From the NCBI GenBank assembly GCA_024679065.1, contig JAGIQG010000016.1, positions 2,170,001 to 2,234,000 on the forward strand: 64,000 nucleotides of DNA, in the 5' to 3' direction. Of this stretch, positions 466 to 63,030 are shown piece after piece (position 1 is the stretch's first letter; each line of letters begins with the position of its first letter). The notes under the pieces are model-generated. The model saw only the letters and a program-made list of their open reading frames with translations, had not been told where the DNA came from and did no database searches. This stretch comes from Sphyrna mokarran (lineage: Eukaryota). The translations under genes and the position numbers were made by a program.

Positions 466-524
466 CTTCTACAGAGAGAGAAATGAACATTCTCAAAAAT
501 ATTAAATTAAACCCTTGCACTTAC

Positions 525-621
525 TTTCTCACACATTTGAGGATGAGGAGTCCACTCAGTCCAGCACACAACAAGATTCCACCTCCAAGCAATCCTACTT
601 TCCACTGATTGGAAACTTGAT
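525..621 (-). CDS. Gene A transmembrane exon (H)QVSNQWKVGLLGGGILLCAGLSGLLILKCVR(K)
   Basis: Acceptor ttttacAG (622-623), donor GTAAG (524-520), 97 nt, phase 1-2. Hydrophobic run followed by KCVRK. Same length as paralogue 47206-47302. Confidence 0.88.
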
Positions 622-8403: not shown

Positions 8404-8679
8404 GTTTCACAGTGATGGACCCCTCCACCGCTCCATGTTCATTCTCTGCCATGCACTGATAGCCTCCAGTATGCCAGGATGTAACAGTAAAAATCACCAA
8501 CCACAGCTCATTATTGGATCTGGTTCTATTCACTGTGACGTTAAGATGTCTCCAGGTCAGGTTAGAAGCTGGAAAGCTCTCGACAGAACAGATTATCACT
8601 GCAGAACTCCCCTCAATTATATTGATCGATGAAGGATTAATCGTATGAAGGTAAGTAATTCTGAGATTGCGTGGTGCAT
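8404..8679 (-). CDS. Gene A second C2-type Ig exon (YAPRNL...ICSVESFPASNLTW...GGYQCMAENEHG)
   Basis: 276 nt, phase 1-1, AG at 8680-8681, GTGAG donor. C..W..YxC Ig pattern with the ESFP and AENEHG segments typical of Siglec/MAG C2 domains. Confidence 0.92.
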
Positions 8680-8796
8680 CTAAAAACAAAAAAGTTACGT
8701 AGACTGTGAAGCACAGAGACTGTGATAATGTGAAAGGTATGGTAACAATATAGCTTCTTTCAAAACAATACAAGTAAATCAGACAGACATTTCAGT

Positions 8797-9566
8797 TTAG
8801 TACTGAGGGAGTGCTGCACTGTCAGAGAGTCAGTGCTGAGGGAATGCTGCACTGTCAGAGGGTCAGTGCTGAGGGAGTGCTGCACTGTCAGAGGGTCAGT
8901 GCTGAGGGAATGCTGCACTGTCAGAGGGTCAGTGCTGAGGGAATGCTGCACTGTCAGAGGGACAGTGCTGAGGGAATGCTGCACTGTCAGAGGGTCAGTG
9001 CTGAGGAATGCTGCACTGTCAGAGGGTCAGTGCTGAGGGAATGCTGCACTGTCAGAGGGTCAGTGCTGAGGGAATGCCGCACTGTCAGAGGGTCAGTGCT
9101 GAGGAGTGCCGCACTGTCAGAGGGTCAGTGCTGAGGGAATGCCGCACTGTCAGAGGGTCAGTGCTGAGGGAGTCCCCACTGTCAGAGGGTCAGTGCTGAG
9201 GGAGTCCGCACTGTCAGAGGGTCAGTACTGAGGGAGTGCCGCACTGTCAGAGGGTCAGTGCTGAGGGAGTGCAGCACTGTCAGAGGGTCAGTGCTGAGGG
9301 AGTGCCCACGTCAGAGGGTCAGTGCTGAGGGAGTGCCGCACTGTCAGAGGGTCAGTGCTGAGGGAGTGCCGCACTGTCAGAGGGTCAGTGCTGAGGGAGT
9401 GCCGCACTGTCAGAGGGTCAGTGCTGAGGGAGTGCCGCACTGTCAGAGGGTCAGTGCTGAGGGAGTGCCGCACTGTCAGAGGTCAGTGCTGAGGGAGTGC
9501 CGCACTGTCAGAGGTCAGTGCTGAGGGAGTGGCGCACCGTCAGAGGGTCAGTATTGAGGGAGTGCC
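8797..9566 (+). repeat. 33-bp minisatellite (CTGAGGGAGTGCCGCACTGTCAGAGGGTCAGTG)n, about 23 units
   Basis: Direct tandem repeat; produces the 11-aa periodic spurious ORFs. Confidence 0.97.
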
Positions 9567-9795: not shown

Positions 9796-10089
9796 ATTGC
9801 ACAGTTAGTACAAGGTTCCTCTCTGATGAAACAGATGGATATTTCACTCTACAGGTGAGATTGTGTCCGTGGTGTTTGGGTGATGGGATCAGGGTCAGAA
9901 CAGAAGTATAGGTCACAGTGACACCATGCTGAATTACAGTGTTTGAGACTGATCCAGGTATGTCAGTGGGAGTGTCCCAGGTTAAGACAGGTGCTGTTCC
10001 ATTGCACGTTGTATTGAAGGTGCAGCTTATGTTCACATGCTTTCCTGCAATAATTTCAGCAGGAAATATCGTGGGTTTATCTGTGAAAT
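9796..10089 (-). CDS. Gene A first C2-set Ig exon (DFTDKPTI...SCTFNTTCNGTAPVLTW...HHGHNLTCRV)
   Basis: 294 nt, phase 1-1, AG/GTAAG. CxxxxxC...P.LTW and HG.NLTC match the Siglec domain-2 pattern, including the extra inter-domain Cys. Confidence 0.93.
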
Positions 10090-10782
10090 CTAACACATAG
10101 AGAATGAATCCCTTTAGATAAATATAACATGAAGCATCAGTTCAAATTGAAATCACAGCCCCACAAGAGAAAGCACTGTTGCAAGGAGAAAATCAGAACT
10201 GAGAGATTAGAATGATGGTTCTCGTCTCTGGAAAAAGGAATCTGAAAGGTGAAATGGATTCAACAGCGCAGATATAGAGAAGATATTTCCACCTGTGGGA
10301 GTGACACAATTGGGAACCATCAACAGAAGGCAGGCACTATCAGGAACAGTTTGAACTGTTCCCTCTCACTGTCCAATATATTTATATTGTATATGGATAT
10401 ATGTGGTTTCTGACCCGTGGAGGACTTGCATCAATTTAAACAACTCAGCAGCAAACTCGTGTATTTAAAAATGAAAGAGATCAATTTATTTCTCACACTT
10501 GCCCCAGAAGCGTCCAAAACATTGACATTTCATCCAGGCTATTATGTACACAAAAACTAACACATTTGAAACTAAAACAATAATTATAAAAATAGAAATT
10601 TAGATCAGTCACTCTTTCATACAGGCCTAATGTTTCAGATCCATATTATTTAATACTCTATCCAAAGTGAATGTTTCTAAAATGCAAAGATTTTTCAGTC
10701 GTTACGAACGTTCCTAGAGTTGACCTTATTTCTCATTAAGAGTTGAATGTAAGTTATTGAGTAATGATAACACAGCACTTAC

Positions 10783-11148
10783 CAGAAACACGAAGCTGGG
10801 TTACACGCTGAGAGTTGTAATTATTCTTCTGGTCAAATTCTACTCTGAAAAAATAAGATCCAGCATCTCTCTGTGTGATGTCATTTATAATGAGGGAACA
10901 ATTGCCATCTTTCAGGTCTCCAGACAGCCGGGTCCGATTGTGGAATTGTGGTGCTGCTTGATTGTGATCCTTGGAGTGAAAGGCAATAGATGATGATGAC
11001 TGTTTCTCATTATTAAACCAGATTCCAACTCGTGGCTGGTTTTCTAGACATGATGGATAACTGTACTGACATGGAATCTGTACACATGAACCTTCCTGCG
11101 CTGTCACCTCTCGTGGAGTGTCACTTTTCCACTCCTTTGACAGTTCAG
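10783..11148 (-). CDS. Gene A proximal V-set exon V2 (AELSKEW...GSCVQIPC...DGNCSL...DAGSYFFRVEF)
   Basis: 366 nt, phase 1-1, ctccccAG and GTAAG. Siglec V-set signature (CxxIPC, NCSL, YFFR with essential Arg). Open frame. Confidence 0.92.
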
Positions 11149-11606
11149 CTGGGGAGAGAAATATCAATATTTAACACTGGATGCTTTGTAGATCCCAACA
11201 TTCAATATCCACCCTTTCCATCACTGGCACACAGTGGCTGCAATGTGGACCATCTGCAGGACATAGAAAACTCACAAGTGTTACATCAACAGCACCTCCC
11301 TCCCCTATTACCTCTGTTACCCTCAAAGACAATATTTGATTATGATATGGAGGCCAATACGTACGGCTTTTAAACAGAGATGGATGGAATTGGATAACCT
11401 GATAACATTGATGGACGCAATCAGTGCATTTAATCATGATATTAAAGTGAGTGTGAGAGGTTGCTTTAGGACTGAACTGGAAGCTATTACCAGGTTATTG
11501 ATAATCAGACATTGTGCTAAAATAAGCTGTGTTTTGTGTTAATATGTAAATATCACAGTTTGAGTGTTGAATGTGAATTATTGAGTAATTATAACACTGC
11601 ACTTAC

Positions 11607-11969
11607 TGGAAACGCGAAGCCAGGTTACAGGGTGATAACTATAGCTGGGACCATTGTCAAATTCGATTCTGAAATAATAAGGTCCTGCATCTTCCTGTCT
11701 GATGTTGGTAATAATCAGGGAACAATCACCATCTTTCAGGTTTCCAGACAACCGGGTCTGATGGCGGAACCGTGGCATCTCGTGCTTGTGATCCTTGGAG
11801 TGAAAGGCTATTAACGATCTTCTCCGTTCCTCATTAAACCAGACTCCACCTCGGGAATGGGTTTGCAAATGTGATGGATAAGTATAATGACATGGAATCT
11901 GTACACACGAACCTTCCTGCGCTGTCAGTTCTCGTGGAGTATCACCTTTCCACTCCTGTGTCAGTCCAA
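11607..11969 (-). CDS. Gene A distal V-set exon V1 (VGLTQEW...GSCVQIPC...DGDCSL...DAGPYYFRIEF)
   Basis: 363 nt, phase 1-1, intact AG/GTAAG, same Siglec V-set motifs, open frame. Confidence 0.92.
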
Positions 11970-13559
11970 CTGGGGAGAGAAACATCAATATTTAACACTG
12001 GATGGTTTGTGGATCCACTAAATTCATTATTTACCCCCTCCATCACTAATGCACAGTGGCTGCAGTGTGGACTGTGTACAGGACATACAAGGAACTGCCA
12101 AAAGTTCCACAATGGATGGAAGAGAATCCTGGACACAGGAGTGAACAAGTTCATTCTACACTGGCTCATGGTCCTTAGAGCCCAGTTTAATGAAGCGAAT
12201 CTTCCATCCAACACAATGTCTACAAGGTGCACCAATGGAGATACGTTCAGTGCTGATCGACAAGGCAGGACAATGGATTAGGAGTCCCAATAGCTCCCAT
12301 CATCATTACCATCATGAATCAGCAATTTCCTTACCTGCCTGTTAGCTCTTCAACATAGATGATTGGCTAATGTGATTCCAAATAATTGGGACAATTCACG
12401 TATTGATTATCCAAGGAATCTCAATTGACTTGTCAGCGTTAATTGATAGATTTTGTAAAAGCGGACAGATTTAACACTCCTACATTAGATTCAAATCGTA
12501 TAGTAGTCAAATATTTATATCTTAAGGTGCTAACATTAACAGAGCCCAAACACAGCTCCAGTCAGCAGACAACCGAGAGGGTGGTCTGACCTGACTGCCC
12601 TTCCACAGTGGCTACATTCACAGCTGAGTATCCCTGGAGAGGGGGCCTGACATGTCCACGGGCACCGTTGAGATAGCACAGGGAATGGAATGTTTTATTG
12701 ATCCTTCTAATCATCCTTTGGGTTTTTTTTAAGTTTAATTTCTGCTTTGTTTTTGTTTCGGGAAGTTCCTTCCTTCTTTCTTTATCCCTTTTTTATTTAA
12801 TTTTGTTTAAAAAAACTGACATCAACAGTAGTTGACAGCAAGGCTGTTTAGTTTTTAGAAGAACAAATTATTTTCCAGCTAGATTACCAACAAGCTTGTG
12901 AGTGACGGTTTAATTAAAGTTAAATTATAAACCAAGTTATAGCCAAGAACAGAATTTTAATGTACTGTGTGAGCAGTCTGTATCTGTGAGTTGGGGCTGA
13001 GAGCTGCATTCATTTGCCATCCCTATTATTTTTGTATGACAGCTAAAGCACAGGAGGGTGGTCCTCCAGAGGTTTCACTGGGGTAGCTCCTTCTATGCTT
13101 GAATCATAAATAAACTATTGTGACCTGTCCTTGGATCTCCTGTGGTTGGTTAAAAGAAATCCACCATAACAATTCCCATTGTCGAAAGGATAATTTCTGG
13201 TCTAATCCCCATGTTGTTGTATTGTTGATTCTGATGTAGCATTGGAGACTGACTTGTCCCCAAAGTCAGCACTGAGCCTGTTCCAGCGGACACTGTGAAA
13301 CACACTGAGGTTAGCACCCCTAGCCTGCGCTTTGCGTGTCTCAAAAGTGTTGCTATGTTGGCTTCACAACTTTTATGGATTGTTGCATTGCATTTTAGTT
13401 GCTTCAAATTGTACTCACACTAAAAGCTGATGAAAAACAGCACATATGCAGATTCATATTATTAAGAAGAGTTTAAAGTGTTAATGATCAGAAAATTAAT
13501 TAATTGAATGATAGAGCACAGAAGGAGGCCATTCACTTATGCTGGGCCTTTGAAAAGAT

Positions 13560-23310: not shown

Positions 23311-23350
23311 CTTGGAAAAGGGACAGGAGGAAGTAAGATTTCCCAATCAT
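23311..23350 (-). CDS. Gene A signal-peptide exon MIGKSYFLLSLFQ (exon 23311-23391 includes 5' UTR)
   Basis: Strong acceptor ctcctttctctttcAG at 23392-23393. Ends CAA G|GTAAT (phase 1, fits the V exons). Paralogue at 62264-62345. Upstream in-frame ATGs at 23356 and 23371 are also possible. Confidence 0.8.
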
Positions 23351-23495
23351 TGCCATTCTCAAATATTTCATCAACTTCTCATTCTCAAGCTCTGAAAGAG
23401 AAAGGAGTTACTGAGACATCACCTCTTGCCCAACAGCTATCTAGAGACCAGAACTACATTAAGAAAATGTTTATGCTGTATTGACCCTCGGTGTT

Positions 23496-24335
23496 GTCCA
23501 TCCCACAGTGCAGCACTCATTGAGTACTGACCCTTTGACAGTGTGGCACTCCTTCAATACTGACTCTCTGACAGTGCGGCACTCCCTCAGCATTGACCCT
23601 GTGACACTGTGGCACTCCCTCAGTACTGATCCTCCAACAGTGCAGCATTCCCTCAGTTCTGACTCACTGACAGTGCGTCACTCATTCAGTACTGACCCTT
23701 TGACGGTATGGCACTCTTCAATACTGACTCTCTGACAGTGCGGCACTCCCTCAGCATTGACCCTGTGACACTGTGGCACTCCCTCAGTACTGATCCTCCA
23801 ACAGTGCAGCATTCCCTCAGTTCTGACTCACTGACAGTGCGTCACTCATTCAGTACTGACCCTTTGACGGTATGGCACTCTTCAATACTGACCCTCTGAC
23901 AATGCAACACTCCCTCAGTACTGACCCTCCAACACTGTGGCACTCCCTCAGTACTGATCCTCTGACAGTGCAGCATTTCCTTAGTACTGACTCTCTGACA
24001 GTGCGGCACTCCCTCAGCACTGACCCTCTGACTGTGCGGCACTCCCTCAGCACTGACCCTCTGACAGTGTGGCACTCCCTCAGCACTGACTCTCTGACAG
24101 TGTGGCACTCCCTCAGCACTGAACTTCTGACAGTGCGGCACTCCCTCAGCACTGACCCTCTGACAGTGTGGCACTCCCTCAGTACTGACCCTCTGGCAGT
24201 GCGGTACTCCCTCAACACTGACCCTCTGGCAGTGCGGCACTCCCTCAACACTGACCCTCTGGCAGTGCAATACTCCCTGACACACTGACAGTGCATCACT
24301 CTTTCTGTACTGACCCTTTGACAGTGCAGCAATCC
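23496..24335 (-). repeat. 33-bp minisatellite, opposite orientation, upstream of the gene A leader exon
   Basis: (CACTCCCTCAGCACTGACCCTCTGACAGTGCGG)n. Confidence 0.96.
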
Positions 24336-24579
24336 CACAGTAAAAGCACTGAGAGCAGCTGACTAGATTATCAGCTGAAGCTCATGTCCTTGCGCTTCCC
24401 AGACCCCTTGAACGAGAAAGATGTTCTTTACGACAGACTGAAGCCTCACAGTCAGCTCTCAAAAATCAGTAGGAATCTTTCAAAGACATCAATCATTGGA
24501 ATCTGTCTTTGTAAAGTCTCAACATCAACAAAGGGTAATGTTGGTCATGGAAATGAATTCCAGTCGTTCTGTTACTTAC

Positions 24580-24650: not shown

Positions 24651-25433
24651 TTGTGTGTTTAATTAGAAAGAGGTAATGCATCACTGTGACCCAAAATGAG
24701 GAACTGCTTGTTTCAAAATTAGAAATCAAGACTTTGCCTTGTCTGTGAGCAAACTGTTAACCCTTTGGATGCCTCAGTTGTGGCTGAATAGCCTTCTCGA
24801 AGTGTAACAAGTGTAACATGTTCCTGTGTAACAAGCCTGCGTGTGTGGGGATGGGGGTAGTGTTAACCCATCATGAAACCAGATCAATCACTAAGACTAT
24901 TTATTACGGTAAAGTGGACCCAGTAACAAAAGCAGATTAATATCCTATTCCACAATTGGAACAGTATTTTGAGAAAGTGGGACAATTGGAGTTTATCATA
25001 AAAAATCATTTGCTGCAAAGATTTTGGCAAGTTTCTGTCTCAGAAAGAGTGAAAGAGGTATCAGCTTTTGTAACGCAAATGATCTATATCAATTAAAAAT
25101 CAAAAAAAAAACTGTTCTCCGGAGCAGAGTTTTTGGAGAGTGGCTGGTGAGACTCCTGATTTGCAATTTCTGTCTTTCACTTTAGTTGTTAGAGTGTTTA
25201 TTTCGGCGCTTCGCAGTGGGAGATAGGCACAGGGGGCTGCAGGGAAGGAAGCGCGGGAGTGTAAAAGGAAGGCCAAGGTAGACAGCGGGCAGTGGAGTGA
25301 GATGGGAATTAGAGTGAGAGCAATAAGGGCTTAAGCTCACTGGGCTTGGGAGAGCGCAGGCTTGGACGCGGTGAGTACCTTGATTCCTACCTAATCAACA
25401 CTTTTCCCAACACCTTTAAAGGGGGTATACAAA

Positions 25434-26339
25434 ATGCCACGATACTTGGCCAAACGCATCCACTGCGTACGCTGCCATATGTGGACCTTCTTGGAGGCAT
25501 CACATCTCCAGAAGGCCCACATATGCGCAAAATGTTTAGAATTGCAACGTTTAAGAGCTAAGTTGAGACAGCTGGAGCTGCGCTTGGAGGACATGTGTCT
25601 AGTGAGGGATAATGAGGTTACAATGAATAGGGAAGGTAGTCCTGCGGGGACCCCAGGATCTAGTAGTAGGGACGGGCTGGTTACAGTTACGAGGAACAAG
25701 AATAAAAATCAAGGCACAAAGGCCATCTCTAAGGAGGATTCCCAGAAAACCAAGGGAGGGGTAAAAGCTGTGATGGAGAGGGCAAGTGAAGGGGAACAGA
25801 ATGCCACAGAGACCAGCAGGAAAGTAGGAAGTGAGATATTGGTGGGGGATGGGATGGTTAAAGGGATTGATAGGCGTTTCTGTGGGCAACAGAGAGACTC
25901 CAGGATGGTAGTCTGCCTCCCTGGAGCAGGGGTCCAGGATGTTTCAGAGAGGGTAGAGGGAATTTTGAAGGGAGAAGGGTCAAAGGCAAATGTAGTAGTT
26001 CACGTAGGACAGAAAGATGTAGGAACAAAGCGCAGGGGGGACTTACGTAGGCATTTTAGGGAGTTGGGGGCTCAACTGAAAGGTAGGGCCTCCAGGGTGG
26101 CGTTCTCTGGGCTGCTGCCTGTGCCCGGGACCGATTGGGTAAAAACAAATGAGACACTCCAACTAAATGCATGGATGAGGGATTGGTGTAGGTCAGAAGG
26201 CTTCATATTCATTGATCATTGGGAGGTCTTCAGGAGGGAGGGTCACCTATTCAAGAGGGATAGGGAGCAGTTGACTGGGAGGGGAACACATATTTTAGCT
26301 GGGAGGTTAGCTGGAGTGTTTCAGAAGTGTTTAAACTAA
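25434..26339 (+). CDS. CR1 ORF1p (zinc finger/leucine zipper + SGNH-esterase-like domain), 301 aa
   Basis: CVRC..CAKC followed by an L-heptad; ILVGDGMVKG, VVCLPGA, VVVHVGQKD, FSGLLPVP and LNAWMRDWC blocks. Confidence 0.88.
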   Translation: MPRYLAKRIHCVRCHMWTFLEASHLQKAHICAKCLELQRLRAKLRQLELRLEDMCLVRDNEVTMNREGSPAGTPGSSSRDGLVTVTRNKNKNQGTKAISKEDSQKTKGGVKAVMERASEGEQNATETSRKVGSEILVGDGMVKGIDRRFCGQQRDSRMVVCLPGAGVQDVSERVEGILKGEGSKANVVVHVGQKDVGTKRRGDLRRHFRELGAQLKGRASRVAFSGLLPVPGTDWVKTNETLQLNAWMRDWCRSEGFIFIDHWEVFRREGHLFKRDREQLTGRGTHILAGRLAGVFQKCLN

Positions 26340-29234
26340 TAGGGAGGGAGGGTGGGGAGAGAGAGGGAACTGGGAGTGGGAGAGAGAGGGATGATAGGAT
26401 AACACCAGAAGGTAGAAAGGAATATCCGAGAGCTGAGGGTCTTCAGTGCATGTGTTTTAATGCGAGGAGTGTGACTGGCAAAACAGATGAACTGAAGGCA
26501 ATAATGTTCACGAGGAGTTTAGAAGTGGTGGCGGTGACTGAGACGTGGTTGAAGGAGGGGCAAGACTGGCAATTGAATATTCCAGGGTATAAGTGTTTTA
26601 GGCGTGACAGAGTTGGTGTGAGGAGAGGCGGGGGAGTGGCTTTATTAGTTAAGGACAACATCATAGCAGTGCAGAGGGAGGGAGGTATGGATGATTTAGG
26701 AATTGAGTCTCTATGGGTGAAGTTGAGGAATAGGAAGGGAGTGGTTACTCTGTTGGGTGTTTTACTACAGACCGCCCAACAGCCCGCGAGCCATGGAAGA
26801 AGGGATATGCAGGGACATTTTAGATAAGTGTAGGAAAAATAGGGTAGTAGTAGTGGGAGATTTCAATTTTCCTGGAGTAGATTGGAGAGTGCCCAGAGCT
26901 GTAGGAGTGGACGGGGAGGAATTTGTACATTGTGTTTTGGAAGGGTCCTTGGAGCAGTATGTGGATGGCCCGACTAGAGATGGGGCTATACTGGATTTGG
27001 TTCTGGGGAATGAGCCAGGGCAGGTGGTTGACGTCGAGGTAGGAGAGCATGTGTCAAATAGTGATCACAACTCTGTCTGCTTTAGGATATTAATGGAAAA
27101 GGACGAGACCGGCCCAAAAGGGAAGGTATTTAACTGGGGGAGGGCTAGATACAGCCAGATTAGGCAAGATCTTAAAGATACTGACTGGGATAAGCTTTTT
27201 GAGGGCAGGTCGATGAGGTACATGTGGGAGTCTTTCAAGGGAAAACTAAACTCTCTGCAGGAAAGATACGTGCCGGCAAGGAGGAAGGATGGGAAAGGTA
27301 GGATTAGAGAACCGTGGCTTACCAGGGAGATTGAGGACTTGATCAGGAAGAAGCGAGAGGCTTACATTAGATCTAGGCAACTGGGGACTGAGACAGCGCT
27401 GGAAGCTTATAGAGAGTGTAGACGGGATCTTAAAAGGGGTATTAGAAAGGCAAAAAGGGGCCACGAGGTGGCTCTGGCAGGTAGGATTAAGGAAAATCCA
27501 AAGGCATTTTACACCTATGTAAGGAGCAAAAGGATGGTTAGAGGCAAGATTGGACCTCTCAGGGACAGAGGAGGGGATCTATGCTTAGAGCCTGAGGGAA
27601 TGGGGGAGATCCTGAATGAATGCTTTGCGTCGGTATTCACGCAGGAGACTGGCCAGATGTCTGTTGCTGATGTTGACAAAGTTGAGGATCGGTTGAGGGA
27701 AATAAGGATTACGAGGAAAGAGGTGTTGGGGCTGTTAGGCAGCTTAAAGACATATAAAGCTCCAGGGCCTGATGGCATTTACCCCAGGCTGCTAAGGGAG
27801 TTGAGGGAAGACCTAGCTGGGCCTCTGATGCAAATCTTTGTCTCTTCCTTGGACACAGGTGAGGTCCCAGAGGACTGGAGGATAGCAAACGTAGTACCGT
27901 TGTTTAAAAAAGGTCAGAGGGATAACCCAGGGAACTATAGGCCGGTGAGCTTGACTTCAGTTATAGGTAAGCTAATGGAGAGGATCCTTAGGGACAGGAT
28001 GTATGAGCATCTGGAGCGCTGCGATCTGATCAGGGATACGCAGCATGGCTTCGTCAAGGGGAAGTCTTGTCTTACAAATCTAGTGGAATTTTTTGAAGAA
28101 GTGACAAAAACAGTTGATGAAGGACATGCTGTTGATGTCGTCTACATGGATTTCAGTAAGGCGTTTGACAAGGTTCCTCATGGTAGACTGATAGAGAAGG
28201 TGAAGGCGCATGGGATACAGGGTCGGGTATGTAGATGGGTCGAGAACTGGCTCGGGAGGAGGAGACAGAGGGTAGTAGTGGAAGGCTCTTTTTCCAGCTG
28301 GAAGCCTGTCACTAGTGGAGTGCCACAAGGCTCAGTACTAGGTCCTCTTCTATTTGTGGTCTACATAAACGACTTGGAAGTTGGGGTAGGTGGTGAGATC
28401 AGCAAATTTGCTGATGACACCAAGATGCTTGGATTGGCGGGTACAGAGGAGCAGTGTCAGGCAATACAACAGGACATAGATAGGTTGGTAGACTGGGCAG
28501 ATAGATGGCAAATGGAATTTAATCCGGATAAATGCGAGGTGATGCATTTTGGCCGGAAAAATGTAGAAGAGAGTTATAGGATAAAAGGTAAAACTATACG
28601 GAGCATAGAGACGCAGAGAGACTTGGGGGTGCAGGTTCACAAGTCTCTGAAGGTGTCCTCACAGGTGGAGAAGGTGATAAAGAAGGCGTATAGTATGTTA
28701 GCTTTCATAGAAAAGGGTATAGAATACAAGAGTAGGAGTTTGATGTTGCAGTTGTATAGAACGTTGGTTAGGCCTCACTTGGAATACTGCGTCCAGTTCT
28801 GGTCGCCGTACTATCGGAAGGATGTGGAGTCCTTGGAGAGAGTGCAGAGGAGGTTTACCAGGATGCTGCCTGGTATGGAAGGACTGTCTTATGAGGAACG
28901 ATTAGATAGACTGGGGTTGTTTTCCCTTGAAAGACGTCGGCTTAGAGGGGATCTCATAGAGGTGTATAAGATTATAAGGGGTATAGATAGAGTAAATGGA
29001 GGTAAACTTTTTCCACCTTTAGAAATGGATAGGACGAGGGGTCATGGCCATAGGGTGAGGGGGGCTATGTATAGGACGAATATTAGAGGGCAGTTTTTCA
29101 CACAAAGGGTAGTGGGGGTGTGGAATGCACTGCCGAGTAAGGTGGTGGGAGCAGGCACGCTGGGGCTGTTTAAGGGTCTCTTGGACAGCCACATGAGCGG
29201 TATGCAGATAGAGGGATATATTAGGACTGTTTAA
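26327..29234 (+). CDS. CR1 ORF2p endonuclease-reverse transcriptase, split by one +1 frameshift at ~26760
   Basis: ORF 26327-26827 (CFNARS, ETWL, GGGVAL) continues in ORF 26757-29234 ([24 protein letters not shown]). Apparent extra T in GGTGTTTTACTAC. Confidence 0.9.
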
Positions 29235-34264: not shown

Positions 34265-37200
34265 AAAGTTATGTCGGACCCGGAGAGGTTGAAGTTGTGT
34301 CAAGTGCAGGACCTGAGAGGATGAATTTGTGTCGGGTTTGGGGAGAATGACGTTGTGTCAGGTACGGGAAGATGAAAATGTGTTGGGTTTGGGGAGGATG
34401 AAGTTGTGTCAGGATCAGGGAGATAAAAATGTGTTGGGTTTGGGGAGGATGAAGTTGTGTTGAGTTTGAGGAGGATCAACTTGTGTTGGTTTCAGGGAGG
34501 ATGAGGATGTGTTGGATTTGGGGAGGATGAGGATGTGTTGGATTTGGGGAGGATGAAGTTGTGTCGGATTTGGGGAGGATGATGTTGTGTCGGGTTCGAG
34601 GAGGATGAAGTTGTGTTGGATTTGGGGAGGATGAAGTTGTGTCAGGTTCGGGGGGGATGAAGTTGTGTTGGTTTCGGAGGATAAAGTTGTATTGAGTTCA
34701 GGGTGGATGAAGTTGTCGGATTTGGGGAGGATGAAGTTGTGTCGGGTTTGGGAGGATGAGGTTATGTCGGGTTCAGGGAGGATGAGGTTGTGTCGGGTCT
34801 GGGAGGATGAGGTTGTGTCGGATTCGAGGAGGATGAAGTTGTGTTGGGTTTGGGGAGGATGAAGTTGTGTTGGATTTGGGGAGGATGAAGTTGTGTTGGA
34901 TTTGGGGAGGATGAAGTTGTGTTGGGTTTGGGGAGGATGAAGTTGTGTCGGGTTCGAGGAGGATAAACTTGTGTCGGATTTGGGGAGGATGAAGTTGTAT
35001 CAGGTTCAGGGGGGATGATGTTTTCTGATTTGAGGTGGATGAAGTTGTGTCGGGTTCGAGGAGGATGAAGTTGTGTCGGATTTGGGGAGGATGAAGTTGT
35101 GTCGGGTTTGGGGAGGATGAAGTTGTGTCGGGTTGGGGAGGATGAAGTTGTGTTGGATTTGGGGAGGATGAAGTTGTGTTGGGTTCGAGGAGGATGAAGT
35201 TGTGTCGGGTTCGAGGAGGATGAAGTTGTGTCGGGTCGGGAGGATGAAGTTGTGTCGGGTTCGAAAAGGATGAAGTTGTGTCGGGTTTGGGGAGGATGAA
35301 GTTGTGTTGGATTTGGGGAGGATGAAGTTGTGTTGCGTTTGGGGAGGATGAAGTTGTGTTGGGTTTGGGGAGGATGAAGTTGTGTCGGGTTTGGGGAGGA
35401 TGAAGTTGTGTCGGATTTGGGGAGGATGAAGTTGTGTCGGATTTGGGGAGGATGAAGTTGTGTCGGGTTTGGGAGGATGAAGTTGTGTCGGGTTCGGGAG
35501 GGATGAAGTTGTGTCGGGTTCGGGAGGGATGAAGTTGTGTCGGGTTCGGGAGGGATGAAGTTTGTGTCGGGTTCGGGAGGGATGAAGTTGTGTCGGGTTC
35601 GGAGGGATGAAGTTGTGTCGGGTTCGGGAGGGATGAAGTTGTGTCGGGTTCGGGAGGATGAAGTTGTGTCGGGTTCGGGAGGGATGAAGTTGTGTCGGGT
35701 TCGGGAGGGATGAAGTGTGTCGGGTTCGGGGGATGAAGTTGTGTCGGGTTCGGGAGGGATGAGTTGTGTCGGGTTCGGGAGGGATGAAGTTGTGTCGGGT
35801 TCGGGAGGGATGAAGTTGTGTCGGGTTCGGGGAGGATGAAGTTGTGTCGGGTTCGGGAGGGATGAAGTTGTGTCGGGTTCGGGAGGATGAAGTTGTGTCG
35901 GGTTCGGGGGGGATGAAGTTGTCGGATTTGGAGAGAATGAAGTTGTGTCAGAGTTGGGGAGGATGAAGTTGTGTCGGGTTTTCGGAGGATGAAGTTGTGT
36001 TGGGTTTAGGAAGAATGAAGTTGTGTCGAGCTCGAGGAGGATTGAGTTCTGTCAGGTTTGGGGTGGATGAAGTTGTGTCGGGTTTGGGGAGGATGAAGTT
36101 GTGTTGGATTTGGGGAGGATGAAGTTGTGTCGGGTTCGAGGAGGATGAAGTTGTGTCGGGTTCGAGGAGGATGAAGTTGTGTCGGGTTCGAGGAGGATGA
36201 AGTTGTGTCGGGTTCCGAAAGGATGAAGTTGTGTCGGGTTTGGGGAGGATGAAGTTGTGTTGGATTTGGGGAGGATGAAGTTGTGTCGGGTTCGAGGAGG
36301 ATGAAGTTGTGTCGGATTCGGGGAGGATGAAGTTGTGTCGGGTTCGGGGAGGATGAAGTTGTGTTGGATTCGGGGAGGATGAAGTTGTGTCGGGTTCGAG
36401 GAGGATGAAGTTGTGTCGGGTTCGAGGAGGATGAAGTTGTGTCGGGTTCGGAGAGGATGAAGTTGTGTCGGGTTTCGAAAAGATGATGTTGTGTCGGGTT
36501 TGGGGAGGATGAAGTTGGTTGGATTTGGGGAGGATGAAGTTGTGTTGCGTTTGGGGAGATGAAGTTGTGTGGGTTTGTGGTTCGGGAGGATGAAGTTGGA
36601 GATGAAGTTGTGTCGGGTTCGAGGAGGATGAAGTTGTGTCGGATTTGGGGAGGATGAAGTTGTGTCGGATTTGGGGAGGATGAAGTTGTGTCGGGTTCGG
36701 GGAGGATGAAGTTGTGTTGGATTTGGGGAGGATGAAGTTGTGTTGGGTTCGAGGAGGATGAAGTTGTGTCGGGTTTGGGGAGGATGAAGTTGTGTCGGGT
36801 TCGGGGAGGATGAAGTTGTGTCGGGTTCGAAAAGGATGATGTTGTGTCGGGTTTGGGGAGGATGAAGTTGTGTTGGATTTGGGGAGGATGAAGTTGTGTT
36901 GCGTTTGGGGAGGATGAAGTTGTGTCGGGTTTGGGGAGGATGAAGTTGTGTCGGGTTTGGGGAGGATGAAGTTGTGTTGGATTTGGGGAGGATGAAGTTG
37001 TGTCGGATTTGGGGAGGATGAAGTTGTGTTGGGTTTGGGGAGGATGAAGTTGTGTTGGGTTTGGGGAGGATGAAGTTGTGTTGGATTTGGGGAGGATGAA
37101 GTTGTGTCAGATTTGGGGAGGATGAAGTTGTGTCGGGTTTGGGGAGGATGAAGTTGTGTCAGGTTCGGGAGGGATGAAGTTGTGTCGGGTTCGGGAGGGA

Positions 37201-38367
37201 TGAAGTTGTGTCGGGTTCGGGAGGGATGAAGTTGTGTCGGGTTCGGGAGGGATGAAGTTGTGTCGGGTTCGGGAGGGATGAAGTGTCGGGAAGTTGTGTC
37301 GGGTTCGGGAGGGATGAAGTTGTGTCGGGTTCGGGGGGATGAAGTTGTGTCGGGTTCGGGGGGGATGAAGTTGTGTCAGGTTCGGAGGGATGAAGTTGTG
37401 TCAGGTTCCGGAGGGATGAAGTTGTGTCAGATTGGGAGGAGAAGTTGTGCGGGTTCGAGGGATGAAGTTGGTCGGGTCGGGAGGATGAAGTTGTGTCGGG
37501 TTCGGGAGGATGAAGTTGTGTCGGGTTCGGGGGGGATGAAGTTGTGTCGGTTCGGGGAGGGATGAAGTTGTGTGGGTTCGGGAGGGATGAAGTTGTGTCG
37601 GTCGGGGGGGATGAAGTTGTGTCGGGTTCGGGGAGGATGAAGTTGTGTCGGGTTCAGGGGGGATGAAGTTGTCGGATTTGGAGAGAATTAAGTTGTGTCA
37701 GAGTTGGGGAGGATGAAGTTGTGTCGGGTTTTCGGAGGATGAATTTGTGTTGGGTTTAGGAAGAATGAAGTTGTGTCGGGCTCGAGGAGGATTGAGTTCT
37801 GTCAGGTTTGGGGTGGATGAAGTTGTGTCGGGTTCGAGGAGGATGAAGTTGTGTCGGATTTCGGGAGGATGAAGTTGTGTCGGGTTCAGGGAGGATGAAG
37901 TTCTGTTGGGTTCAGGGAGGAAGAATTTGTGTCAGGTTCAGGGAGGAAGAATTTGTGTCAGGTTCAGGGAGGATGAAGTTGTGTCGGGTTTGGGGAGGAT
38001 GAAGTTGTGTCGGGTTCGAGGATGAGGAAGTTGCGTCGGATTTGGGGCGAATGAAGTTGTGTCGGGTTCAGTGCAGTTGAAGTTGTGTCGAGTTCGAGGG
38101 GGATGAAGTTATGTTGGATTTGGGGAGAATGAAGTTGTGTCAGGTTCGCGGAGAATGAGGTCATGTCAGTTTTGGGAGAATTAAGTTGTGTCAGGTTTTC
38201 GGAGGATGACGTTGTGTCGGGTTCGGGAGGATGACGTTGTGTCGGGTTCGGGAGGATGACGTTGTGTCGGGTTCGAGGAGGATGAAGTTGTGTCAGGTTC
38301 GGGAGAGATGAAGTTGTGTTGGATTTGGGGAGGATGATGTTGTGTCAGGTTTGGGGCAGATGAAGTT
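34265..38367 (+). repeat. ~4.1-kb G-rich 26-bp tandem satellite (GGGAGGATGAAGTTGTGTCGGGTTCG)n
   Basis: Roughly 150+ direct copies, degenerate at both ends. Lies in the last intron of gene B. Confidence 0.98.
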
Positions 38368-38379
38368 TCAGGCAGATGT

Positions 38380-38808
38380 TTGTAGACTAGTCAGTGTCGT
38401 GATGAGGATATGGGAGTGAATGAGACTGTGTTTGGTGAGGAATGTGAGTATTTGCTGGTGTGCACGTCTACATGCTGGAATGACCCTATGTACAGGTGTA
38501 AGAGGATGAGTGTACTGTGTGTGTGTGTGTGAATGAATTTGTAGAAGTGAGAGTGCATATTTGCAGGCACTGAGAGTGTGTGGGAGCGAGAAACAACGCG
38601 GGTGAATGTGAGAGGGTGAGTGTGTGGGATTGAGCATGCATGTGGGACAGAACATGTGTGTGAGATTGAGTGAGTGAATGAATGTGAGGAAGAATGAGTG
38701 AGCATGCCGAAATGTGTGGGAGTGAGTGTCTGCCTTACTCCCAATCTCTCAGGTTTCTCACTCTCACCAGTACACACACACTCATACTCTCAACACACCC
38801 ACACATAG
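38380..38808. repeat. Degenerate (TG)n then (CA)n low-complexity tract
   Basis: Seen directly; CA-rich sequence resumes at 41620-42112 after the CR1 insertion. Confidence 0.8.
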
Positions 38809-41620
38809 TCGGAGTAGAGAAGGAGGTAGAAGTGGGGGGAGGAGTGGCATTATTCGTCAAAGACTGTATCACAGTGACAGAAAAGAAGTTTGATGAGGAC
38901 TTGTCTGTTGAGGTAGTATGGGCTGAGATTAGAAACAGGAGAGGAGAGGTCACCCTGTTGGGAGTCTTTTATAGACCTCCTAAAAGTTCTAGAGAGATTG
39001 AGGAAAGGATTGCAAAGTCAATTCTGGTCAGGAGTGAAAGTAATAGGGTAATTGTTATGGGGGACTTTAACTTTACTAATATTGATTGGAATAGCTATAG
39101 CTCTAGCTCATTAGAGGGGTCAGTTTTCGTACAAAGTGTGCAGGAAGGTTTTTTAACTCAGTATGTAGAAAGGCCAACTAGAGGCGAGGCTACATTGGAT
39201 TTGGTGCTGGGCAATGAGCCAGACCAGGTGTTAGGCTTGGAAGTTAGTGAACATTTTGGTGATAGTGACCACAATTCGGTTACGTTCACCTTAGTGATGG
39301 ATAGGGATAGGCATGAAGCTGGGGGCAGTAGTTATAGCTGGGGGAAGGGTAATTATGAGGCCATCAGGAGAGAATTAGGGTGCATAGATTGGACTAGGAA
39401 ACTACAGGGACTGGGAACATCTGGAATGTGGAGCTTATTCAAGGAGCAGCTGCTGCGAGTCCTTGATAAGTATGTCCCTGTCAGGCAAGGAGGAAATGGT
39501 CGAGTAAGAGAACCTTGGTGTACGAAAAAAGTTGATTTGCTGGTTAAAAGGAAAAAGGAGGCTTATGTCAGGATGAGGCTTGAAGGCTCAGTTAGTGCAA
39601 TGGATAGCTATAGATTAGCCAGGAGGGAGCTAAAGAGTGAATTGAGGAGAGCTAAGAGGGGACACGAGAAGACTTTGGCTGATAGGATTAAGGAGAATCC
39701 TAAAGCTTTCTTTAGATATGTTAAGAATAGAAGATTGGTTAGGGCAAGATTAGGGCCAGTCATAGACAGCAGTGGGAAGTTGTGCGTGGAGCCTGAAGAG
39801 ATTGGAGAGGCACTGAATAAATATTTCTCTTCGGTATTCACGCAGGGTGATGTAAATGTAGTTATGGAGAACACTGAGGTACAGGGTTGCAAACTGGAAA
39901 GTATTGAAGTAGATAGGGAGGATGTGCTAGATATTCTCGAGGGTTTGAAGTTGGATAAGTCCCCTGGGCCGGACGGGATTTACCCTAGGATTCTCTGGGA
40001 GGCAAGAGAGGAGATTGCAGAGCCTCTGGCTCTGATCTTCAGGTCGTCGTTGGTTACGGGTGTGGTTCCGGAGGACTGGAGGATAGCGAATGTGGTCCCA
40101 TTGTTCAAGAAGGGGAAGAGAGACCTTCCAGGGAATTATAGGCCAGTGAGTCTTACTTCTGTTGTGGGCAAAGTATTGGAGAGAATTATTAGGGATAGGA
40201 TTTATAGTTATTTAGAGAGAAATGAATTGATTGGGGATAGTCAGCATGGTTTTGTGAAGGGTAGGTCGTGCCTTACTAACCTTATTGAGTTTTTTGAAAA
40301 AGTGACCAAAGAGGTGGATGGGGGTAAGGCGGTTGATGTGGTATATATGGACTTTAGTAAGGCGTTTGATAAGGTGGCCCATGGAAGACTTCTGCAGAAA
40401 ATGCAGATGTATGGGATAGAGGGTGATTTAGCTAATTGGATTAGGAATTGGCTAGCAGATAGAAGACAGAGGGTGGTGGTTGATGGGAGATATTCATCGT
40501 GGAGTTCGGTTACAAGTGGTGTACCTCAGGGGTCTGTTTTGGGGCCCCTGCTGTTTGTAATTTTTATAAATGATCTGGATGAGGGTATTGAGGATGGATT
40601 AGTAAATTTGCAGATGACACTAAAGTCGGTGGAGTGGTAGATAGTGAAGAGGGGTGTTATAGTTTGCAGAGAGACTTGGACAAGTTGCAGAGCTGGGCCG
40701 AGAGGTGGCAAATGGAGTTTAATGTGGAAAAGTGTGAGGTAATGCACTATGGCAGGAATAATAAATGTGTAGAGTATAGGGCTAATGGTAGGATTCTTAA
40801 TAGTCTTGATGAACAGAGGGATCTTGGTGTGTATGTGCATAGATCCCTGAAAGTAGGCAGTCAAATCGAGAAGGTTGTTAAGAAGGCATATGGAGCTTAG
40901 CTTTTATTGGTAGGGGGATTGAATTTCGGAGCCGCAACGTCATGTTGCAACTGTACAAAACTCTAGTGCGGCCGCACTTGGAGTATTGTGTGCAGTTCTG
41001 GTCCCCACATTATAAGAAAGATGTGGAGGCATTGGAGAGGGTACAGAGGAGGTTTACCAGGATGTTGCCTGGTATGGAGGGCAGGTCTTATGAAGAGAGG
41101 CTGAGGGATTTGAGGTTGTTTTCGTTAGAAAGGAGGCGGCTAAGAGGGGACCTAATCGAAACATATAAGATGATTAGAGGTTTAGATAGGGTGGACAGTG
41201 ATAGCCTTTTCCTAGGATGGAGAAAGCTAGCACGAGGGGACACACATTTAAATTAAGGGTGATAGGTATAGGACGGATATCAGAGGTAGGTTCTTTGCCC
41301 AAAGGGTGGTTAGGGAGTGGAATGCCCTGCCTGCAGCAGTTATAGATGCGCCAAGTTTGGTGGCGTTTAAGAGGTTAGTTGATAAGTATATGGAAGAGAA
41401 GGGAATGGTTTAGTTTGGAGGGTCATTGCTTTTTATATTGGTCGGCGCAACATGGAAGGCCGAAGGGCCTGTTCTGTGCTGTAATGTTCTATGTTCTATG
41501 TTCTAATTATATGGAAGAGAAGGGAATGGTTTAGTTTGGAGGGTCATTGCTTTTTATATTGGTCGGCGCAACATCGAAGGCCGAAGGGCCTGTTCTGTGC
41601 TGTAATGTTCTATGTTCTAT
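38809..41620 (+). mobile_element. Young 5'-truncated CR1 LINE, same subfamily as 19342-22328, with duplicated 3' tail
   Basis: ORFs 38694-40640, 40634-40900 and 40942-41256 are nearly identical in protein to the minus-strand copy. Confidence 0.96.
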
Positions 41621-42112
41621 AGACAAATGCACACATAGACACATACACATACACTCACATTTACACGCACATTCACACTCACACACACATACACACATGC
41701 ATATGCAAACACACATACACACATAGACATACATCGANNNNNNNNNNNNNNNNNNNNNNNNNNNNNNNNNNNNNNNNNNNNNNNNNNNNNNNNNNNNNNN
41801 NNNNNNNNNNNNNNNNNNNNNNNNNNNNNNNNNNNNNNNNNNNNNNNNNNNNNNNNNNNNNNNNNNCCTCGCATACACACATATATATACATAGACATAC
41901 ATTATACACATGCATGCACATATATAGACATACACACGCATTCACACACACATATTTACATACATATACACACACATGTACACACATACGCACATACAAC
42001 TACAAACACACACATACATACATACATACATGCACACAGACACACATTGTCATTCACACTCACACACAAACTCACACACACACACGCACGCACGCACACA
42101 CACACACACTCA
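41620..42112. repeat. (CA/TA)-rich microsatellite containing a 129-N assembly gap (41738-41866)
   Basis: Seen directly. Confidence 0.95.
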
Positions 42113-47302: not shown

Positions 47303-47402
47303 CTGTAAAAATAACCAATGAGTGATCCCAGTACAGTTTTAGAATGGTTCTGAGATGTACATGTAGTCATTCTGAACTTGTGAAGTCATATCTGTCTATA
47401 CA

Positions 47403-48631
47403 GGGTAGGTCGTGCCTCACAACCCTTATTGAGTTTTTTGAGGAGGTGACCAAAGAGGTAGATAAGGGTAAGTCAGTTGATGTAGTGTATATGGATTTTA
47501 GCAAAGCATTTGATAAGGTTCCCCATGGTAGGCTACTGCAGAAAGTGCAGATGCATTGGATTGAAGGTGATTTAGCAGTTTGGATTAGGAATTGGTTAGC
47601 TGATAGAAGACAGAGGGTGGTGGTGGATGGGAAATATTCAACCTGGAGTGCAGTTACAAGTGGTGTACCTCAAGGATCTGTTTTAGGGCCACTGCTGTTT
47701 GTCATTTTTATAAATGACCTAGATGAGGGTGTAGAGGGTTGGATTAGTAAATTTGCTGACGATACCAAAGTGGGGGGAGTTGTAGACAGCGAGGATGGAT
47801 GTTACAGTTTGCAGAGGGACATAGATAGGTTGCAGAGCTGGGCCGTGAGGTGGCAAATGGAATTCAATACGGATAAGTGTGAGGTGATTCACTTTGGTAG
47901 GAATAACAGGCATATGAAATATAGGGCTAATGGAAGGACCCTTAATAGTGTTGTCGAGCAGAGGGATCTTGGGGTACAAGTACATAGCTCTTTGAAAGTT
48001 GGCACCCAGGTTGATAAAGTTGTTAAGAAGGCGTACGGTGTGTTAGCTTTTATTGGTAGAGGGATTGAATTTAGGAGCCGTGAGGTTATGTTACAACTGT
48101 ACAAAACTCTGGTGCGGCCGCACTTGGAGTATTGCGTACAGTTCTGGTCGCCGCATTATAAGAAAGATGTGGAAGCATTGGAAAGGGTGCAGAGGAGGTT
48201 TACCAGGATGTTGCCTGGTATGGTGGGAAGGCCTTATGAGGAAAGGCTGAGGGACCTGAGGTTATTTTCATTAGAGAGAAGAAGGTTACGCGGTGACCTA
48301 ATTGAGGCGTATAAGATGATCAAGGGATTGGATAGGGTGGATAGTGAGAGCCTTTTTCCTCGGATGGTGATGACCAACACGAGGGGACATAACTTTAAAT
48401 TAAGAGGTGGTAGTTATAGGACGGATGTCAGAGGCAGGTTCTTTACACAGAGGGTGGTGAGGGCGTGGAATGCCCTGCCTGCAGCAGTTGTGGACTCGCC
48501 TACTTTGGGGACATTCAAATGTTTGGTGGATAGGCATATGGATGATATTGGAGTAGTTTAGGTTAGAGGGTCCACTGGCCGGCGTAACATCGAGGGCCGA
48601 AGGGCCTGTACTGCGCTGTAATGTTCTATGT
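47403..48631 (+). mobile_element. Young 5'-truncated CR1 with uninterrupted RT C-terminal half
   Basis: Open frame to 48561. TSD TCTATACA at 47395-47402 and 48632-48639. Lies about 100 bp from the TM exon acceptor. Confidence 0.95.
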
Positions 48632-50707: not shown

Positions 50708-50835
50708 CTGAAAAAAACAAATATCAGTTAACTTCCATTGTGAAGCACACTGAAAGACTCTGAGAATATTGTAGGTGTGATATCAATGTAGGTTATTTCA
50801 CAAAAAGCATGGAATCTAAATGGACACTTCAATTT

Positions 50836-51445
50836 AGTACTGAGGGAGTGCCACACTGTCAGAATGTCAGTGCTGAGGTATTGCCGCACTGTTAGAGAGT
50901 CAGTACATCATGAGTGCCACACAGTCAGAGCATCAGTGCTGAAGGAGTACCACACTGTTAGAGGGTCAATACTGACGGAGTGCCATACTATCATAGGGTC
51001 AGTACAGAGGAAATGCCGGGTTTCAGAAGGTCAGTGCTGACAGAGTGCCGCACTGTTAGAGGGTCAGTGCTGAGGGAGTGCCGCACTGTTAGAGAGTCAG
51101 TATTGATGGAATTCCACATTGTCGGAGTGCCGCACTGTCAGAGGGTCAGTGCTGAAGGAGTGCTGCAATGTCAGAAGACCAGTACTGAGGGAATGCTGTA
51201 CTGTCAGAGGGTCAGTGCTGAAGGAGTGCCACACTGTCAGAGGGTCAGTGCTGAGGGAGTGCCGCACTGTCAGAGGGTCAGTGCTGAAGGAGTGCCGCAC
51301 TGTCAGAGGGTCAGTGCTGAGGGAGTGCCGCACTGTCAGAGGGTCAGTGCTGAAGGAGTGCCGCACTGTCAGAGGGTCAGTGCTGAGGGAGCGCCGCACT
51401 GTCAGAGGGTCAGTGCTGAGGGAGTGCCACACTGTCAGAAGGTCA
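50836..51445 (+). repeat. 33-bp minisatellite at the position paralogous to 8797-9566
   Basis: Same unit, same intron (between the two C2 exons). Confidence 0.96.
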
Positions 51446-51665
51446 GAAGTGATGAAACACTACATGGTCACAGGGGATGTCAAACTGATTTCCCTTTCTC
51501 AGGCAATTAATCAGCTGATAATATTCAATACAGAGTTCACTTGAGTCATTTGTTACCACTCAACAACAGATGATCTGCTTCTTACCACATTGTTGTTGGT
51601 GGGATCTTGCTGTCAATAACCTAAACCGTTACATGTGATGTAGAATGAATTATATCTGTACTTAC

Positions 51666-62303: not shown

Positions 62304-62457
62304 TATCCACTCCCAGATATTTCACCAGCTTCCCACTCTTAAGCTCTGAAAGAGGAAAGAGTTAATGAGACCTCACCTCTTGTCTGACAGCTCTCAAGAG
62401 ACCAGAACTGCTTCAAGAAAAACATGTTCACAGCACTGCATTAATCCTCAATATTGC

Positions 62458-63025
62458 TTCTCTGACGGTACAGCACTCCCTCAGTACTGACTCTCTGACG
62501 GTTCAGCACTCCCTCAGTACTGACCCTCTAACAGTACAGCACTCCCTCAGTATTGACCCTCTGACAATGCAGCACTCCCTCAGCACTGACTCTGTGACAG
62601 TGCAGCACTCCCTCAGTACTGACCCTCTGACAATGCAGCACTCCCTCAGTACCGACCCTCTGACAGTGCAGCACTCCCTCAGTACTGACCCTCTGACAGT
62701 GCAGCACTCCCTCAGTACTGACCCTCTGACAGTGCAGCACTCCCTCAGTACTGACCCTCTGACAATGCAGCATTCCCTCAGCACTGACTCTCTGACAATG
62801 CAGCACTCCCTCAGCACTGACTCTCTGACAATGCAGCACTCCCTCAGCACTGACTCTCTGACAGTGCAGCACTCCCTCAGTACTGACCCTCTGACAGTGC
62901 AGCACTCCCTTAATATTGACCTTCTGACAGTACAGTGCTCCCTCAGTGCTGACATTCTGATAGTGCAGCACTTCCTCAACACTGACCCTCTGACAGTGCG
63001 CACTCCCTCAGTATTGATCCTGTGA
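62458..63025 (-). repeat. 33-bp minisatellite upstream of the gene B leader, paralogous to 23496-24335
   Basis: Same unit, orientation and position. Confidence 0.96.
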
Positions 63026-63030
63026 GAGTG

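Follow-up and report, generated by a model that had tools for sequence, protein, structure and literature searches.

Two Tandem V-Set Exons in a Siglec-Like Gene of Sphyrna mokarran and a Predicted Disulfide between Stacked V Domains

Siglecs are described as a single sugar-binding V-set domain on a stalk of C2-set domains, with Siglec-12 as the exception. In a 64,000-nucleotide stretch of the genome of Sphyrna mokarran (hereafter, the window), a Siglec-like gene contains two V-set exons in tandem, V1 and V2. This locus raises the question of whether both V domains enter one receptor chain or are exchanged as ligand-binding cassettes, two readings that an earlier note on this DNA had placed side by side.

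Gene organization and origin of the V exon pair

The gene and all its exons lie on the minus strand. It is complete, with the order leader, V1, V2, two C2-type domains, transmembrane (TM) segment, and cytoplasmic tail (L-V1-V2-C2-C2-TM-tail), and its last three cytoplasmic exons fall beyond the window. The coding part of the leader (signal peptide) exon (23311..23356) comprises 46 nt, ends in a phase-1 donor, and resembles the leaders of homologs; leader-exon matches occurred 12 times across this genome. V1, a V-set exon of the first type (11607..11969), comprises 363 nt between the acceptor TTTCTCTCCCCAG and the donor CCA/GTAAGT, and V2, a V-set exon of the downstream type (10783..11148), comprises 366 nt between the same acceptor tract as in V1 and the donor CTG/GTAAGT. 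The intervening GT-AG intron (11149..11606) is 458 nt long. The first C2-set exon (9796..10089) encodes a C-x5-C motif equivalent to C163/C169 of CD33, the second Ig exon (C2/I-set; 8404..8679) is of phase 1-1, and the TM exon (522..621) encodes a helix with no charged residue in its interior. The three cytoplasmic exons, at about 2169695-2168624 of contig C668, carry the Tyr motifs SLYANC and AIYGNM, followed by a stop codon. At 24650-24584 on the same strand, 1.2 kb upstream of the leader, stands an orphan copy of the first cytoplasmic exon that is shortened internally and has AG and GTAAGT sites; it is possibly a recruited 5′UTR exon or duplication debris.

Both V exons are of phase 1-1 and free of stop codons, and their products share 62.5% amino-acid identity. 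Each product scored above the cut-off for Pfam V-set and Ig_CD22, and both contain an A-strand Trp, an AB-loop Cys (GSC), the B- and E-strand Cys residues, and an F-strand Arg (YYFR / YFFR). V1 has no BC-loop Cys and has Gly at the signal-cleavage position; V2 has an additional BC-loop Cys (codon TGT) and Glu at the signal-cleavage position. These data confirmed the earlier description of two open phase 1-1 V exons with intact splice sites, 458 nt apart, which both retain the YxFR Arg and the inter-domain Cys, and the positions given for the leader donor (23311) and the C2 acceptor (10089) were upheld.

The pair had been attributed to a tandem duplication of ~820 bp. The spacing agreed with this proposal, the copies being offset by 821-824 nt, yet just about 565 nt could be aligned; the final ~145 nt of the V1-V2 intron are homologous to the end of the intron preceding V1. 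The dS value between V1 and V2 was 0.52 (dN/dS = 0.45), as against 0.23 between V2 and the V exon at C668:1921134 and 0.37 between V1 and the V exon at C668:2050345, so that neither has the other as its closest relative. A recent simple tandem duplication was ruled out by these values. V2 was mosaic, being 89-98% identical to a single-V gene across part of the exon, and its five nearest neighbors, at 78-84% identity, were V domains from downstream positions in Mustelus asterias that bear the Cys. Since V1 and V2 are each nearer to V domains of other genes than to one another, the pair is best read as an old or mosaic array. The same divergence excludes an assembly artifact, which the earlier note had considered unlikely on this ground. 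A hidden leader between V1 and V2, with the pair representing two genes, was also ruled out, as no leader match was found there. A tree of 147 V-domain sequences, with the Cys column masked and one distant V omitted, was poorly resolved and mosaic and was unsuitable for counting Cys origins. The V domains are gene-conversion mosaics, and Cys counts among them are therefore not independent.

The cluster around the window on contig C668 comprises eight genes with intact V exons (one of them on contig C2) and several broken copies. Two of the eight, this gene and one on the plus strand at C668:2837544-2878300, have a double V behind one leader. The second gene is complete (L-V-V-C-C-C-TM) and has the ITIM-like tail motifs ILYANI and TEYAQI; the AB-loop Cys of its V1 is displaced by two residues (ALNCSF), and its V2 carries the PSC Cys. 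A duplicate of its 5′ part lies on C865. The double-V arrangement is not peculiar to the present gene, being found in this second gene and in other elasmobranchs.

A single-V paralog is located within the window on the minus strand (62263-33399; leader at about 62310-62263, V at 56785-56417, C2 at 51959, Ig at 50710, TM at about 47300, and tail exons to 33399), and its V domain lacks the AB-loop Cys (GSH) and has a new G-strand Cys (RLCVS). Among other members, an open V exon (L004:5621-5980; C668:1970620) has Arg in place of the B-strand Cys and has hence lost the intra-domain disulfide, and a V acceptor near L001 position 5713 (C668:2050712) has changed from AG to AA, with a frame-keeping AG available three bases downstream. 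The window also contains LINEs at 25395-29231, 38688-41253, and 47326-48558 (all on the plus strand), which we take to be of the CR1 type from their reading frames, one of them with long open stretches of ORF1 (314 aa) and ORF2 (835 aa). Minisatellites of 33 bp are located at 8700-9560, 23390-24380, 50800-51550, and 62350-63100, a 26-bp array at about 34300-38400, and a run of 129 N at 41738-41866 within a CA-rich simple repeat.

V-V arrays and a position-specific Cys residue

The named homologs of V1 were all shark or ray proteins, and many of the shark models bear the RefSeq label 'Siglec 12'. Counted in gene models rather than observed transcripts, with RefSeq partly ab initio, 28 of 89 shark and ray homolog models showed V-V adjacency, in runs of two to seven V domains, as did 59 of 188 elasmobranch-type proteins (isoforms counted) V-V adjacency as such, and joined V-V models among homologs and cluster members span 11 shark and ray species. 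The check for tandem V exons in other sharks that the earlier note had suggested was positive at the level of homolog gene models. Joining of in-frame exons would be the default outcome in RefSeq models, which include visible read-through fusions (P0097). Logan-derived proteins were searched for a spliced V-V product, and the sole Logan cluster among the matches listed was single-V. A search for RNA data listed no holder of the sequence, four runs sharing 5-9% of its words. By itself, a double-V gene is nothing unusual in this family, and automated annotation of other sharks already includes such genes.

A seven-V run in Cetorhinus maximus (P0001; LOC144671591) showed the Cys pattern no/yes/no/yes/no/no/yes, which suggests that duplication took in whole V1-V2 pairs. 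A profile search gave V-V arrangements, again in gene models, in nine of 129 further proteins. Seven of these came from five frogs, a turtle, and a gecko; the other two were a Siglec-12 of a primate and, from a lungfish, a multi-V protein of a different type (P0212, P0217, P0236, P0268, P0298, P0297, P0270, and P0231 for the frogs, turtle, gecko, and lungfish). The BC-loop Cys was absent from the V-V models of the five frogs, the turtle, and the gecko. The lungfish protein, which we presume to be perhaps PILR-like, has seven tandem V domains without the Siglec AB-loop Cys.

The BC-loop (PSC) Cys of V2 proved to depend on position. Once 16 incomplete domains and duplicates had been removed, 36 of 47 downstream V domains contained it, as against 1 of 28 at the start of an array and 6 of 62 single V domains (Fisher p 2e-10, relatedness ignored). 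The lone first-of-array case comes from a ray model truncated at its 5′ end, with a V that matches the third one of a four-V gene, and the six single V domains are all from white shark, four of them leader-bearing, including an L-V2-C isoform (P0113). In a later protein set, none of the 44 readable single V domains contained this Cys (6 of 50 were unreadable). Per multi-V gene, 22 of 27 lacked it in V1 and had it in V2, five had it in neither, and none showed the reverse. In this genome, it occurs in both second V domains (2/2) versus none of the eight first or single intact V domains. The Cys is missing from 11 of the 47 downstream V domains, including three of the six in the basking-shark seven-V run and both V domains of P0014 and P0028, which indicates that a V1-V2 disulfide would not be obligatory in the family.

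The structural position of this residue points to its partner. In CD33, V-domain C36 is reported to be bonded to C2-domain C169 (PMC6669322); C36 aligns with the GSC of shark V domains, and C169 with the second Cys of the C-x5-C motif in shark C2 domains. The additional Cys of V2 follows the B-strand Cys as C-x6-C and falls in the BC loop, the same loop as the C2 partner Cys (C-x5-C). The loop assignment comes from an AlphaFold model of P0012, a V-V-C2 homolog (pLDDT 81, pTM 0.59), which informs on fold and secondary structure only. A Foldseek search with this model superposed its V and C2 part on CD33 and Siglec-10 with a target TM-score of about 0.8, the Siglec match being confined to V and C2. 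In a head-to-tail chain of Ig domains, the BC loop would face the preceding domain. The enrichment in downstream V domains and the location in the loop of the C2 partner Cys suggest that the extra Cys of V2 likely supplies the partner of the V1 Cys. The AB-loop Cys was retained in all 28 first-of-array V domains, and the second Cys of the C-x5-C motif in 132 of 140 C2 domains. The expectation of the earlier note that the V1 Cys would be unpaired in a V1-V2-C2 protein is countered by this loop Cys, to which the note itself had briefly alluded.

A Glu located five positions ahead of the A-strand Trp, which V2 also has, was found in 21 of 43 downstream V domains versus 1 of 96 leader-adjacent ones; 58 of the 197 domains could not be read or had no leader. 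According to the -3/-1 rule, a charged residue at the signal-cleavage site should disfavor cleavage. Together, the BC-loop Cys and the signal-region Glu indicate that V2 is apparently built as an internal domain.

On the whole, we regard as probable a V1-V2-C2 chain in which the V exons are co-spliced, a predicted V1-V2 disulfide forms through the BC-loop Cys of V2, and V2 and C2 share the usual Siglec bond. The product would be a type I membrane Siglec-like receptor (L-V1-V2-C2-C2-TM-tail) with joint inclusion of both V exons and two inter-domain disulfides, V1(AB)-V2(BC) and V2(AB)-C2(BC), the V domain in the downstream slot having presumably come to bear the docking Cys that is otherwise found in C2. 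Stacking of V domains would give a longer, stiffer rod, raise the distal site off the membrane, and possibly add a second site. The F-strand Arg is retained by 41 of the 47 downstream V domains, so that a second glycan-binding site in V2 is possible; by analogy with human Siglec-XII, in which loss of the V1 Arg alone is reported to abolish binding (PMC6288428), V2 may be mainly a spacer. The receptor would be expected to bind sialic acid and to signal through its tail, and recruitment of adaptors by the Tyr motifs would be our guess for the output. The signaling output is uncertain, since the TM segment contains no basic residue and the tail no canonical ITIM. Minor forms that skip V1 may exist.

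A wider generalization is conceivable but doubtful, namely an elasmobranch modular Siglec system of a 'cap' V and a stackable Cys-bearing V, in which duplication, conversion, and alternative inclusion would yield disulfide-stitched arrays of two to seven glycan-reading domains. The cap V is defined here by a signal-cleavage site and no loop Cys, and the stackable V by a C2-like docking Cys.

Splicing of the V exons and alternative explanations

The two readings of the earlier note fared differently. The double-V receptor gained from the V-V arrays and the V2 Cys, whereas the swappable cassette, which the note had preferred, lost ground, as a search for devices of mutual exclusion between V1 and V2 found none: joint inclusion is in frame, the intron is 458 nt long, both introns are GT-AG, and no docking/selector stem exceeded shuffles in the ten region pairs compared (perfect stems, selected regions). 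Three RefSeq isoforms of one Scyliorhinus canicula gene share leader and tail and differ in their V sets of four, three, and three, and a white-shark gene has one RefSeq isoform with L-V2-C (P0113). The V-exon choice envisaged earlier is hence possible in the family, although a strict rule of one exon or the other is unlikely. Every V was retained in all listed isoforms of the remaining genes with more than one isoform, which comprised the basking-shark seven-V gene (with 15 of its 20 members listed), a basking-shark V-V gene, two additional white-shark genes, and genes of S. torazame and Hemiscyllium. Among 127 single-V proteins, none had a V identical to the first V of a multi-V protein, and one (P0113) repeated a V2.

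These results bear on two explanations in which splicing selects among V exons. A mutually exclusive cassette (L-V1-C2 or L-V2-C2), by which one gene would encode two glycan specificities, is very unlikely. Either exon alone would be in frame and would offer an AB-loop Cys to C2, both retain the Arg while their loops differ, and the white-shark L-V2-C model has the expected form; however, no device for exclusion was found in frame, intron length, splice type, or stems, V2 in first place would expose an unpaired surface Cys and bring Glu to the signal-cleavage site, the 127 single-V proteins included no L-V1-C isoform of a multi-V gene, and V-V models are joined in 11 species. Regulated choice within a concatenated array, in which a first-type V always leads and further V domains are included or skipped to vary length and specificity, appears improbable as the main account. 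Every V exon is of phase 1-1 and a multiple of three, the catshark and white-shark isoforms show the predicted variation, and V-exon skipping is reported for CD33 (PMC8615218); against this stand the multi-isoform genes that keep all V domains in their listed isoforms, and short-read models among exons that are 80-90% identical may be mis-joined. This account is compatible with the co-spliced, disulfide-linked chain that we prefer, from which it differs only in the weight given to skipping.

Other explanations accept the splicing or deny the pair altogether. The V exons might be co-included while the V2 loop Cys serves as a homodimer bond, is a free thiol, or is a hitchhiker of gene conversion, leaving the V1 Cys unpaired, as it may be in Siglec-12; we hold this to be unlikely. 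A TCA TGT CTA patch common to both second V exons in this genome suggests a single origin followed by spread through conversion, the Cys-masked tree has V domains with the Cys in scattered places, the tetrapod V-V models lack the Cys, and free C36 of CD33 is reported to form inter-chain bonds (PMC6669322). Conversion alone, however, should have carried the Cys to first and single V domains as well, given mosaics with the same paralogs, and it is nearly absent there; its position is moreover that of the C2 partner Cys. That one of the V exons is a relic that is never used, or that the pair is an assembly artifact, is extremely improbable: several V exons in the cluster are broken, but all frames and splice sites of this pair are intact despite a dS of 0.52, dN/dS is 0.45, and the nearest homologs of V2 are downstream V domains of Mustelus. 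The disulfide-linked chain has evidence against it too. This genome contains two broken V exons of the downstream type (L010:5235-5597 and L017:5123-4911), with an ELS start and a Cys at the PSC position, for which we could find no upstream V; one of them lies ~1 kb behind its own leader. The Cys is also present in six single-V models of white shark, of which four have a leader, and V-V proteins are modeled without it in primate Siglec-12, frog, turtle, and gecko. The default chaining of in-frame exons in RefSeq models, some of them fused, and the non-independence of Cys counts among conversion mosaics weigh in the same direction.

Relationship to known Siglecs and other tandem Ig systems

The gene has the sequence attributes of a Siglec, with a V-set followed by C2-set domains, a TM segment, and a tail, and with the F-strand Arg and the A- and G-strand aromatic residues, as judged from alignment of V1 to sialoadhesin and Siglec-5 and of V2 to V1. 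The Siglec Cys pattern, comprising the B-E pair within the V domain and the pair that links V to C2, was present at the residue level by alignment to C36, C41, C101, C163, and C169 of CD33, the bonds being predicted. The best PDB matches of V1 were sialoadhesin, Siglec-5, MAG, and CD33, with the Trp, three Cys, and Arg residues aligned; the top match was the V domain of sialoadhesin (E 3e-15), in which Trp2 and Arg97 were aligned.

CD33-related Siglecs (CD33, Siglec-5, -7, -8, and -10) were the top PDB sequence matches of a V-V-C homolog and share with the shark gene the Cys pattern, the Arg, and membership of a clustered, fast-duplicating family with pseudogenes. They differ in having one V and in their tails. 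The ITIM consensus is (I/V/L/S)xYxx(L/V), and the tail of the shark gene has YxN-type motifs in place of the canonical ITIM and ITIM-like pair; the second double-V gene comes nearer to the ITIM pattern. The TM helix contains no basic residue, unlike that of DAP12-coupled activating Siglecs. The V1 match to the sialoadhesin V domain and the Pfam Ig_CD22 match recall sialoadhesin (Siglec-1), MAG (Siglec-4), and CD22, in which the binding site is reported to be extended by C2 repeats behind a single V (PMC8615218), whereas the shark gene would extend by stacking V domains.

Dscam-type arrays consist of mutually exclusive tandem Ig exons. The shark gene resembles them in having duplicated tandem Ig exons of equal phase in one gene, but its V exons showed no docking/selector complementarity above shuffles, and the homolog models join the V exons.

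V stacking recurs in elasmobranchs together with a specific structural adaptation: through the extra Cys, a V domain could take the place of C2 in the inter-domain disulfide. Double-V Siglec-12 is already known; in the literature covered, mostly outside subscription journals, we found no account of shark multi-V Siglecs and their arrays, of the downstream-V Cys, or of a V-V disulfide. With the shark arrays, nature provides a test of whether glycan is bound by internal V domains, giving multivalency on one chain, or whether these domains serve as spacers, the same question that applies to Siglec-12. The large CD33-like cluster of this cartilaginous fish stands against the bony-fish set, which, as summarized in PMC7226832, comprises four regular members only and no ITIM-bearing CD33-related ones.

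Siglec-12 itself is the closest parallel. It is described as carrying a pair of V-set domains at its N terminus, with C2 domains behind them (PMC6288428), and both the genomic anatomy of the shark gene, known here from DNA, and the homolog models fit this trait of two tandem V-set domains. The likeness lies in the double V ahead of C2, predicted for the shark protein, the primate sequence P0289 being V-V-C-C. The differences are that V2 of P0289, the sole primate sequence examined, has no BC-loop Cys and that shark arrays reach seven V domains. The shark double-V and Siglec-12 are likely to be of independent origin, and the gene is best understood as one that would work like Siglec-12, with a double V, on a CD33-like scaffold.
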